From a virus (lineage: Duplodnaviria; Heunggongvirae; Uroviricota; Caudoviricetes): DNA of 44,198 nt. Shown here piece by piece: positions 37,096 through 39,063 of this stretch (the first letter of the stretch is position 1; each line of letters begins with the position of its first letter). Below the pieces are notes generated by a model, which saw nothing but the letters and a program-made list of their open reading frames with translations, did no database searches and was not told where the DNA came from. A program made the translations under genes and the position numbers. The DNA lies in IMG/VR virus record IMGVR_UViG_2541047823_000013; one strand, written 5' to 3'.

Positions 37096-37599
37096 ATGAT
37101 CAATAAAGCTACAACTCTTGACTGTCTCGAAGAACTGAAAAACCTCGGCAGCCTCATTACACTAATAGCAAAAGCAACACCTGATGCTACGCTCTCTAGC
37201 GATATAGAGTCATGCGCAGGACTGGCATGGGATATGACAAATAGCATATCCAGAAAGCTATCGTCAGCAATGCTTTTACAGAACAAAAATTCTGCAATCA
37301 ACACCCGTCTTCGCACCCAACGCGAAGCCTGCGGCTTAACAACCGCCGAACTCGCCAGGCTGCTCGATCTCGATGAAGAAATTATCATCCAGTGGGAGAG
37401 CGGAGAGTATGAACCAACTATCAGTATGCTTATCCCACTGGCAAATATTCTTGGCTGCGATCCGATGTGGCTGTTAACTGGTGAGGTTACTCCTCCGGAG
37501 CAACCAAAAAGTGAGGAGCAGCAACACCATGACGCATCTCAACAAGTTTGCCCCTTATCTCGCGAAGCTCTTCTACGGAAGAACCAATACCAATGGTGA
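37096..37599 (+). CDS. HTH-XRE domain protein, first gene of the early-left operon
   Basis: 167 aa; HTH INTRLRTQREACGLTTAELARLLDLDEEIIIQWESGEYEPTISMLIPLANILGCDPMWLL; GAGG RBS. Confidence 0.55.
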   Translation: MINKATTLDCLEELKNLGSLITLIAKATPDATLSSDIESCAGLAWDMTNSISRKLSSAMLLQNKNSAINTRLRTQREACGLTTAELARLLDLDEEIIIQWESGEYEPTISMLIPLANILGCDPMWLLTGEVTPPEQPKSEEQQHHDASQQVCPLSREALLRKNQYQW

Positions 37600-37727
37600 C
37601 ATAATCGCCGCTTCGCCCCTCAAGGTACATGCGAACATTTTTATCAATCATTGCGGAAACAGTCTCAATATGAAAACACTTCTGAGACTCGCTATATAGC
37701 AGAACATATAAGTCAGCTGAGGAAACC

Positions 37728-38093
37728 ATGAAAAAGTTCGAAAACATAACTGTTCTCCATGTTGATGACTTTGATTATACAAACCCGGAACTTCTCCCGG
37801 AGGTTGTAAAGGCAATAGATGTTGCCGATATAGTGATTAGAGAAAAGAGAATTGTCAAAAACAGGCTCGTATGCACTTCAGGAGCAATGACAGAAACAAC
37901 CTCACAGCAAGATAATTACGAAGGCATTTGCCTGGAGCCTGATTCATTTGCGGTAAATGTTTATCATTTATTGCATGCAACACAGGTATTACATATGTCC
38001 AGTAATCACGAAACGAAAACACTCGGCAGCGAAATTCTGAGTTTTGCATGTGAGTATACAAAAGCTGCTGCCGAAAAAGAATTAGCGCAATAA
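37728..38093 (+). CDS. hypothetical protein
   Basis: 121-aa ORF, no recognisable motif. Confidence 0.5.
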   Translation: MKKFENITVLHVDDFDYTNPELLPEVVKAIDVADIVIREKRIVKNRLVCTSGAMTETTSQQDNYEGICLEPDSFAVNVYHLLHATQVLHMSSNHETKTLGSEILSFACEYTKAAAEKELAQ

Positions 38094-38287
38094 CAACAAA
38101 TATGCCTTGAACGTTTATTGCGGTTTTATCGCCGGGGATTGTTACAACCTTAAACCACAGGAGGCTTTATTGTGACTTTTATAAAGAATATGGCATCACA
38201 CAAGACCGCCTGCCTTATTGCACAATACGGTGAAAATTACATGCATATTGCCTGCTTATTTCTGCGTAAAGCATACGGGAGATAATA

Positions 38288-38476
38288 ATGCATCAGAAAA
38301 CAGCAGAACACGAACAAACCAGAATATTGCTGACCATCAAAAACGGGAAAGTAATATTCATTCGCCATGTTCATGACGATGAACTTGTAGGAACTCTTTC
38401 AACATTCCTGTTTATTGCAGAAAAGGCAGGATATGACGTTATTGCACCAGCAGATGAAGATGAAGATGAGGAATAA
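38288..38476 (+). CDS. hypothetical small protein with acidic C-terminus
   Basis: 62 aa ending ...APADEDEDEE; 6 nt upstream of the next ORF. Confidence 0.45.
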   Translation: MHQKTAEHEQTRILLTIKNGKVIFIRHVHDDELVGTLSTFLFIAEKAGYDVIAPADEDEDEE

Positions 38477-38481
38477 ATATC

Positions 38482-39063
38482 ATGCAATACGATGAATTCC
38501 AGGCTGAAGCAACAGCCAATGGTATACGAACTGGCAGTATGACGATTGATTATCACGACGCCATACGTCGTCTGGATGCCGGAGAATTCGATACTCCTAA
38601 TGTGCGAGGTTTACGTATCCTTCAGTGTCTGGCGCAAGCCGACGAAGCAGGATTACTGGGTAAACTTCCGGTTGAGATGAAGGTTGCTCAGTGGCGATGG
38701 TTGTATGTGACGACATTCATCAACGAAGAAGAAGACAAGAACGGCACAATTGATATCCTGAATGAACACGGAACAACTGAACACGCCGTGGTATATAACG
38801 GGATGTATGGGTTTATGACGATATATCCCGGCCCCATTCGATTTGCCTTACAACAGTATATTGAATGGAATTTAATTCAAAAATACGGCGAAACTGAAGG
38901 AATGGGAAGAGCGCTGTTTCTTTATCAGAAAATGCTCACTACTTCCCCTGATAAAGGTTTCATTCTTTCAGATATGGGTCGAGAAGGGCTTGAAATCCTT
39001 CTGGATGAAATTATTAACGAAATGAATACTCATGGCATGCAATCCGAAACAGATATTAAGTAA
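38482..39063 (+). CDS. hypothetical protein
   Basis: 193-aa ORF, no recognisable motif. Confidence 0.5.
   Translation: MQYDEFQAEATANGIRTGSMTIDYHDAIRRLDAGEFDTPNVRGLRILQCLAQADEAGLLGKLPVEMKVAQWRWLYVTTFINEEEDKNGTIDILNEHGTTEHAVVYNGMYGFMTIYPGPIRFALQQYIEWNLIQKYGETEGMGRALFLYQKMLTTSPDKGFILSDMGREGLEILLDEIINEMNTHGMQSETDIK

Follow-up and report, generated by a model that had tools for sequence, protein, structure and literature searches.

What do the genes that lie directly behind the cI repressor gene contribute to the prophage held in viral record IMGVR_UViG_2541047823_000013? This record, a stretch of 44,198 nucleotides (nt) from a virus of the Caudoviricetes, was analysed at its full length and is referred to here as the window; its identity to known elements marks it as a lambdoid prophage of Escherichia coli of the phiP27/Stx1 type (Stx, Shiga toxin). 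Immediately downstream of cI, between 37096 and 39063, it carries a cluster of open reading frames (ORFs), here called A to E, for which an earlier note, made from the letters of the window alone, had recognized no family, together with a further ORF, X, on the opposite strand. The cluster is neither an artefact nor a known system, but a conserved, uncharacterized early block with a modular first gene. In the reading that we favour, to which we assign a probability of roughly 35%, A-(X)-B-C-D-E would be the promoter-proximal block of a cI-repressed operon of the pL type, and its first genes would form a regulatory module working at the level of proteins rather than a defence system; its interactions and its regulatory role are what we infer from the observations below. 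Central to this is gene A, which we would regard as an adaptor because its conserved helix-turn-helix (HTH) domain appears unsuited to operators and is the same in phages with different operators, and because its variable domain is inherited together with cI, cro and the operators. The features on which the argument draws are the following.

36336..36992, + strand: cI repressor gene, the context gene that sets the immunity type; LexA-like, with Pfam HTH_3 (2e-14) and Peptidase_S24 (4e-22).
37015..37091, no strand assigned: OL/pL-like control region with three operator-type repeats and a promoter-like site.
37096..37599, + strand: gene A, 167 amino acids (aa), a modular protein of the XRE fold (phrog_4739, 1e-98; HTH_3, 43.3 bits).
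Parts of gene A, + strand: N-domain of type I, aa 1-71 (37096-37308); HTH1, aa 72-126 (37309-37473); low-complexity tail, aa 127-167.
37487..37747, - strand: gene X, an antisense ORF of 86 aa (phrog_6104, 5e-49) that overlaps the tail of A and the start of B.
37728..38093, + strand: gene B, 121 aa (phrog_5451), with a conserved N-terminal part of 53 aa and then a C-terminal helical domain, aa 64-121 (37917-38093).
38172..38285, + strand: gene C, a basic microprotein of 37 aa with an isoelectric point (pI) of 9.5; GTG start after AGGAGG.
38288..38476, + strand: gene D, 62 aa, acidic (phrog_340, 3e-22), ending in ...ADEDEDEE.
38482..39063, + strand: gene E, an acidic alpha/beta protein of 193 aa (phrog_1515, 6e-90).
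39074..39322, + strand: gene F, a MarR-like winged-helix protein of 82 aa (96 aa from 39032), next in the same operon and just outside the cluster.

All ORFs listed in the earlier note are present, at 37096-37599, 37728-38093, 38172-38285, 38288-38476 and 38482-39063, and the gene map now also holds the antisense gene X and the microprotein C. We consider the ORFs more than chance products because all except the one of 37 aa match a PHROG family end to end (A, B, D, E and X with E = 1e-98, 5e-83, 3e-22, 6e-90 and 5e-49, respectively, all of them families of 'unknown function') and because the region recurs in genomes and phages. A query of 2.5 kb (36900-39400) is 100% identical to the prophage next to mlrA (yehV) in CE10 (E. 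coli O7:K1), and it was matched in 380 of 5,426 complete E. coli genomes, with at least 80% of the query covered in 122 of these. The interval 37309-39932, which runs from mid-A through H, is 99.5% identical to the mitomycin-inducible phage PhiR49_2, which carries the single-HTH form of A, and about 88-89% identical to Stx1a phages and phiP27. The phiP27 genes L06-L10 stand in the same order and are direct homologues, with L10 corresponding to A, L08 to B, L07 to D and L06 to E, and in Stx1 and Stx2 phages, ASU11 and PhiR49_2 direct homologues of A, B, D and E likewise keep their order; all of these are labelled hypothetical, and their annotation is inconsistent as to domain relations, antisense gene and microprotein. 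Across relatives, A-B-C-D-E stands in the same order behind seven cI clusters, representing at least seven unrelated cI types, and by this gene order the block is a conserved syntenic unit behind many immunity types rather than a hypervariable region.

The earlier note had placed the cluster at the cI-proximal head of the leftward early operon, and the interval between cI and A bears this out. A repeat search located operator-type repeats at 37015-37028, 37046-37059 and 37077-37091, which share the motif of those in the cro-cI interval (CAAAGTATCA / TGATACCTTAG type; 36242-50, 36279-87 and 36302-12), and a promoter scan found the promoter-like site TTGCCA-17-TACCAT at 37036-37064, bracketed by the three repeats and separated from A by a leader of about 30 nt. 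In the heteroimmune relative L004 (3857-4000), cI is followed by a clean, strong intrinsic terminator and then by a TTGACA-17-TAATAT promoter in front of the A homologue. From the operator repeats and promoter-like site of the window, together with the terminator and promoter of L004, it follows that A is the first gene of a cI-controlled leftward unit. No terminator was found between cI and A in the window (36993-37095), and transcripts from the cI promoter might therefore read into A in the lysogen. The + strand genes after cI all point towards xis and int at the window end, and a cro-like gene, Rha-family genes and the replication genes run in the direction opposite to cI and A-E. BoxA-like sites did not exceed chance, and none lay in the leader or was otherwise well placed; an Rfam scan over 35800-41200 gave one sub-threshold chance hit only, and therefore no known small RNA or nut-like RNA is indicated there. 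For cI itself, whose CE10 equivalent bears the PGAP label 'LexA family protein', the longest ORF starts at 36261 (243 aa), and the start at 36336, behind GAGAGGAG, gives the 218 aa that appear in the annotations of PGAP and of Stx1 phages; the 25 codons by which the other ORF is longer (36261-36335) overlie the operator region, and the start at 36336 is most likely the true one.

How is the first gene of this unit built? The earlier note had described A as an HTH-XRE protein with an N-terminal extension of about 70 residues, and this description holds: HTH_3 covers residues 72-126 with 43.3 bits against a cut-off of 23, behind an extension of about 71 residues. Alignment reveals the A family to be a mosaic of a variable N-terminal helical domain, a conserved HTH1, an optional second HTH (HTH2) and an optional low-complexity tail. 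The N-domain comprises about 60-90 aa and exists as nine or more alleles that have little or no relation to one another, and HTH1 is about 74-100% identical across A homologues. The A protein of the window combines a type I N-domain with HTH1 and the tail, and HTH2 is absent. By comparison with the homologue P0068, the usual place of the tail is directly behind HTH2 and its ...CDPMWLLTG motif; the HTH2 of the window therefore appears to have been deleted between two repeated ...CDPMWLLTG... motifs. Over 95 loci, the first 10 of them hand-checked, N-domain cluster and cI cluster form a strictly diagonal 7x7 table with a 1:1 correspondence, and the single or tandem state of the HTH and the allele of B reassort freely within these clusters. 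The mosaic boundary of the immunity region therefore runs through A, at the junction between N-domain and HTH1.

The conserved domain has a repressor-like fold but looks ill-suited to canonical DNA binding. The best solved match of HTH1 is the DNA-binding domain of P22 C2 (E = 4e-6), and it is HTH_3 by a score above the gathering threshold over residues 72-126; by sequence A thus shares a fold family with P22 C2, 434 cI and DicA, from which it differs by its extra N-terminal domain, by the lack of an S24 peptidase, by its acidity and by contact positions that are acidic or hydrophobic. The C2 residues K15, K16, K18, R20, Q21, S31, N32, V33 and S36 are aligned to E, A, G, T, T, D, E, E and I in A; these C2 positions are the DNA contacts of helices 2 and 3 in the C2-operator structures. 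HTH1 does not keep the polar and basic DNA-contact residues of the P22 C2 type, its net charge is -7 as compared with +5 for P22 C2 and +6 for the cI of the window, and the whole protein is acidic with a pI of 4.7. The best named NCBIfam match, DicA (NF007257), reaches 48.6 bits against a curated cut-off of 101, and Pfam finds Peptidase_S24 in the neighbouring cI and not in A. In the tandem relatives it is HTH2, not HTH1, that most resembles C2 and the 434 repressor. As HTH1 is nearly identical across phages with differing operators, it would be unable to read immunity-specific operators. Judged from its sequence, A belongs to no group narrower than the XRE/HTH_3 superfamily, and even there it stands apart by lacking the residues that usually contact DNA.

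Proteins of this kind may already have been noticed under another name. A study of Stx-phage regulatory regions describes an atypical 'clade VIII CI' with two HTH domains, no peptidase and no known role (PMC8951638). The description fits the tandem-HTH relatives of A, which are common in Stx1 and Stx2 prophages, and clade VIII probably consists of these members of the A family, as matched by description; the A of the window has one HTH. However, in the loci that we examined the A-family protein sits beside a normal cI with HTH and S24 domains, and so it is not CI. The exception is cluster 5, in which the protein at the cI position has 151 aa and a faint HTH match only.

Gene B links to A through a shared domain. 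In CE10, PGAP calls the last 68 codons only of the 121-aa ORF, but the full form is kept in homologues with as little as 45-60% identity, with an in-frame indel, and in some phages the last 63-68 aa of B form a separate gene, 5 nt after a tandem-HTH A (phrog_4587, the stand-alone form of 66 aa). The C-terminal 58 aa of B align with the N-domain of the A homologue P0126 at 43% identity over 47 aa (BLASTP, E = 1e-9), hhalign relates the B C-domain to the A N-domain alleles II, IV and III with probabilities of 97.8%, 96.5% and 87.8%, and the A protein of phi467 matches phrog_4587. For the pair in the window, BLASTP gave no alignment between A and B, and hhalign found no relation of the type I group to the group formed by types II, III, IV and B. 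The B allele is independent of the immunity type. That the long form of B is a mere ORF extension over the promoter of X was ruled out, as B has its 121 aa even in a setting in which it directly adjoins A, with no space between them for X.

This arrangement recalls SinR and SinI of Bacillus subtilis, in which, according to one report, the antagonist has the same interaction surface as the regulator (PMC3163267). Here, too, an XRE-fold protein bears an extra helical interaction domain, and an adjacent small protein is a homologous copy of it, in the case of A alleles II, III and IV. The two systems differ in that the helical domain is N-terminal in A and C-terminal in the Bacillus protein, in that there is no sequence relation between them, in that the type I allele of the window has no detectable homology to B, and in that the HTH of A looks unfit for canonical DNA binding.

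In the scenario that we favour, A would be made immediately once cI repression is lifted and would act chiefly through contacts with other proteins. The partner of its N-domain would be immunity-specific, be it the cognate cI, the cognate Cro or the complexes that these form with their operators, and its conserved acidic XRE-fold domain would bind a conserved partner. B, by analogy with SinI, could modulate A-type proteins by competing for the same contacts, and its targets might be the A proteins of co-resident heteroimmune prophages. C and the coupled pair D-E would be early accessory proteins, and X a separate antisense gene, plausibly expressed while pL is silent. Consistent with a function in protein binding, the second and more repressor-like HTH of the A family is the part deleted in the A of the window. 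Where lambdoid phages pass on adjacent regulatory genes together, this has been argued to signal that the genes depend on one another functionally (PMC9836094).

Several points weigh against this scenario. The type I N-domain of the window is without detectable homology to the B domain, and therefore a SinI/SinR logic cannot be claimed for the window's own pair; moreover, A and B are both acidic. The N-domain lies about 100-150 nt from cI, and the perfect covariation may be plain linkage up to the first conserved recombination point. Many of the loci, 95 in all, are closely related to one another and not independent. The acidity and the missing contact residues make canonical operator binding doubtful, if still possible. 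Finally, the model gives no account of the roles of C, D, E and X.

What, then, are these other genes? X crosses the 128-nt gap that separates A and B on the + strand, overlaps the tail of A, and has a start that overlaps that of B head-to-head by 20 nt; its ATG is preceded by GGAG at a distance of 7 nt. Of 75 viral contigs, 73 carry X intact, and a copy with 77% identity occupies the 221-nt gap between A and B in ASU11. The differences between the two copies fall on codon positions 16/12/36 (chi-square p = 4e-4), and in the stretch where the window has no + strand ORF (37600-37727) on codon positions 4/2/9; codons 8-49 of X span this stretch and contain five amino-acid changes, every one of them conservative. 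This pattern leads us to regard X as a real gene. Its candidate promoter is TATAAT at 37777-37772 (TATAAC in ASU11), with no -35 element. X had no match in PADLOC or Pfam and no significant match to sequences of the PDB by phmmer, and a single-sequence AlphaFold2 model reached a pLDDT of 50 and was unusable.

C corresponds to an ORF of 38 codons that had been proposed as possible, and at 38172-38285 there is indeed a GTG start, 7 nt after AGGAGG, followed by 37 codons' worth of protein and a stop. It recurs in heteroimmune loci, and a divergent copy in phi467 keeps ...A.KTA.L.A..G......A.LFLRKAYGK through synonymous codons (CTG/TTA, CTC/CTG and, for Arg, AGA/CGT). It always ends just before the next gene, which is D or phrog_1737, and bears its Shine-Dalgarno sequence; in PhiR49_2 and Stx1 phages it is annotated as a coding sequence. 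C had no PHROG or Pfam match. We take it to be a real microprotein, translationally coupled to its neighbour.

D and E, said to be 6 nt apart, are separated by 5 nt, and the Shine-Dalgarno sequence of E, GAGGAA, lies inside the end of D; by this layout the two genes are predicted to be translationally coupled. They are adjacent in the window, PhiR49_2, ASU11 and phiP27, overlap by ATGA in one relative, and have a 46-aa ORF between them in phi467. The D family has a conserved core, ...V.I.MTIENG.VI....V.D.E.I.S..TF.W.A..AGY.VIAP, which is predicted to form a small beta-beta-alpha unit. Its acidic DEDEDEE tail, pointed out in the earlier note, is present in the window but not conserved: it is peculiar to the subtype found there, and the tails of the family are variable. 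As a defining, DNA-mimic-like feature of D the tail was rejected on these grounds. D shows weak matches to the C-terminal part of two 'anti-repressor' PHROGs. A phmmer comparison with PDB sequences, solved antitoxins included, gave no match, and neither the Ant/ORF6N nor the phrog_1886 neighbours of E gave a BLASTP match to D.

In O157 prophages and Klebsiella phages (L004, 5458-6252; L007, 2648-3520), a D-like gene overlaps a basic ORF of 72 aa of the ParE_like family (PF24732), which is followed by phrog_1886. In the Klebsiella phages, phrog_1886 is followed by E and an Ant/ORF6N protein; the window lacks these intervening genes. The D-like gene, the ParE_like ORF and phrog_1886 may form an unrecognized toxin-antitoxin-like trio of early-left operons. 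They can be compared with the ParE-type toxin-antitoxin pairs of O157 cryptic prophages (PaaR2-PaaA2-ParE2, PMC8630535), as in the sister prophages the ParE_like ORF lies downstream of the D-like gene within one operon and overlaps it, but the window has no ParE-like gene and its D no similarity to solved antitoxins. No gene for a toxin of the ParE/RelE fold was found between D and E or elsewhere in 37096-39322.

E belongs to a larger family than a word-based search, which found it in Escherichia only, would suggest. An exhaustive profile search returned 101 cluster representatives, mostly of 190-220 aa, none of them annotated, and Pfam and NCBIfam found nothing in 45 members; E itself had no Pfam or BFVD match, and a profile search of PDB sequences gave nothing credible. 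The family is characterized by the motifs LD.G.YD, WRW.VA..F, Y.G..G...YP..ER..LA..IE and LS..GRE.L..LHD.FI. Most members end in an almost invariant C-terminal His (...G.P..P..H), and the E of the window and its closest relatives end in ...SETDIK or ...PEGQ. A distant member with 32% identity (L100, 953-8314, an IMG/VR contig) is flanked by DUF4222 and a Toprim/DUF927 primase-helicase; ORF6N is encoded upstream of it and an excisionase downstream. From this context it follows that the family is not confined to lambdoid early-left operons, and the distant branch would make E an accessory protein found generally in the early operons of temperate elements of enterobacteria. For two distant members, a search for related loci returned none from viruses.

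Next in the operon, gene F matches phrog_1687 'MarR family' at 1e-24 and Pfam MarR_2 at 9.5e-5, which is under the cut-off. If its start at 39032 is used, F overlaps the 3' end of E; it is annotated in Stx1 phages and is not called by PGAP in CE10. It also matches, weakly, a 'Ren-like exclusion protein' PHROG.

Could any of these genes belong to a system that is already known? The searches with hidden Markov models that the earlier note had proposed gave no confident assignment to a known family, and its failure to recognize one is borne out: Pfam and NCBIfam returned generic HTH domains only for A-E and X, PHROG only families of unknown function, and no Rex, SieB, Ral, cIII, Kil, or Gam/Bet/Exo. 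PADLOC-DB v2 matches A only through the HTH part of its RmrA, CapH and HTH models, and B, C, D, E and X not at all. Among the PHROG and Pfam matches there were no anti-defence proteins (Acr, Ocr, Ral, Tad, Gad and others), no dedicated anti-defence profile search having been made. The claim that N, exo/bet/gam and cIII homologues are missing likewise stands, as no relatives of N/nut, Rex, Ral, SieB, cIII, Kil or Red/Gam were found. A resembles lambda N in being the first gene after pL and in having a part that is inherited with the immunity region, to which the specificity of lambda N is linked; unlike N, however, A is acidic, has an HTH fold and no arginine-rich motif, and comes without a well-placed boxA or any sign of antitermination. 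In the literature, the accessions, PHROG ids and peptide strings of the cluster were not found in any paper, and the papers on Stx phage regulatory regions and on the 'bully phage' do not address genes A-E and X. On these comparisons the cluster appears to lie outside DicA, LexA/CI, N/nut, Rex, SieB, Ral, cIII, Kil, Red/Gam, the PADLOC systems and ParE-type toxin-antitoxin pairs.

The alternatives differ in what they make of A. If A, B, D and E were small acidic early proteins that inhibit host immunity or host machinery after infection or induction, their place near the promoter of the early-left operon, which in lambda is the site of ral and similar genes, would be well explained, as would their net charges of -8 to -14, many protein inhibitors of defence systems being acidic. 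The lack of a fold relative for E, the fact that no known function competes for any gene of the cluster, and the occurrence of the E family in other temperate elements, beside Ant/ORF6N proteins and a P4-type primase, also fit such an anti-defence or host-takeover role, for which the earlier note had judged this the likeliest place in the window. We nevertheless hold it to be possible rather than probable, at about one chance in four, since the block is a conserved unit and not a hypervariable hotspot, the acidic tail of D is not conserved, the first two genes look regulatory, PHROG, Pfam and PADLOC give no positive support (PADLOC covering defence, not anti-defence), and the cluster sequences are not in the supplements of an accessory-gene screen (10.1101/2023.04.06.535777). 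Somewhat less probable still is that A is an ordinary DNA-binding repressor or activator of the DicA/C2 type, which regulates its own pL or serves as a second immunity repressor, with B-E as passengers. The HTH_3 score above the Pfam cut-off, DicA as best named NCBIfam match, the DNA-binding domains of P22 C2 and the 434 repressor as closest solved relatives, and relatives annotated as 'transcriptional regulator', 'DicA' or 'CII repressor' all speak for it. They have to be set against a DicA score of less than half the cut-off, recognition-helix positions that read D-E-E-I in a domain of net charge -7, the absence from the A of the window of HTH2, the C2-like domain of the tandem relatives, and the near identity of HTH1 in the face of differing operators.

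Two further explanations look beyond A, or deny it a function. X might be a superinfection-exclusion or abortive-infection protein expressed in the lysogen, and D, alone or in addition, an orphan antitoxin-like protein: X, on the strand opposite to the operon, is conserved as a protein-coding ORF and has a Shine-Dalgarno sequence of its own, and D-like genes overlap the ParE_like ORF in the O157 prophages and Klebsiella phages, an antitoxin gene overlapping a downstream toxin gene being the usual layout of such pairs. With no ParE-like gene in the window, where D abuts E instead, no match of D to any solved antitoxin, an unconvincing promoter for X, and no PADLOC, Pfam or PDB match and no usable model for its product, we judge this improbable. 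Most unlikely of all, the single-HTH A, the long B and X could be by-products of deletion or recombination without a function of their own. The apparent loss of HTH2 between two repeats, the 68 aa that PGAP calls for B, and the frameshifted variants of E and A in databases would agree with decay, but the single-HTH form accompanies four or more immunity types and is the one found in the majority of the 95 loci, it is present with 99.5% identity in the inducible PhiR49_2, and the N-terminal 53 aa of B as well as X are conserved at the protein level.

Some observations concern the window and its relatives at large. In strain N32 (NZ_CM165895.1), an otherwise 100% identical cluster is in two pieces, with an IS4-family transposase under the match, and is to all appearance a natural insertion mutant of the block. 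The window contains an exact direct repeat of 2,833 bp (21759-24591 and 24822-27654; start-to-start distance 3,063 bp) in a low-GC region upstream of the replication genes, which doubles at least two - strand ORFs (142 and 112 aa); either a genuine tandem duplication or an error of assembly could account for it. Chi sites (GCTGGTGG) number 15 in the whole window, between 17203 and 42504, as against 1.8 expected, and 11 of them are on the - strand; no exo/bet/gam genes were seen in its early-left region.

Returning to the regulatory module that we favour, its parts can be joined into a more far-reaching proposal, which we consider unlikely as a whole. In those lambdoid phages that apparently lack N, A and B would then add to the lysis-lysogeny switch a new layer, specific to the immunity type and made of contacts between proteins. 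The N-domain of A would recognize the cognate cI or Cro, in the manner of an anti-repressor or co-regulator, its conserved acidic XRE-fold domain would not bind DNA but serve as an adaptor to a target, of the phage or of the host, that is common to these phages, B would be a free decoy formed by the same kind of helical domain and would cross-talk with the A proteins of other prophages in polylysogens such as enterohaemorrhagic E. coli, and E would represent a new fold family among early phage proteins.

The block matters beyond this one prophage. The E family, with about 100 clusters, has no recognizable fold relative, and the 'clade VIII CI' would, if our probable re-interpretation is right, be a neighbour of cI and not a repressor. 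No N/nut and no exo/bet/gam were found in this phage, which raises the question of how the early-left programme of such phages is run; the block comprises the first genes transcribed after the loss of the repressor. Prophages of the phiP27-like and yehV/Stx1 types are common in pathogenic E. coli, and tandem-HTH relatives of A occur in Stx1 and Stx2 phages. If it is true that A and B modulate the switch or the cross-talk between prophages, this would have a bearing on the timing of induction, and hence on the release of Shiga toxin, in polylysogens.

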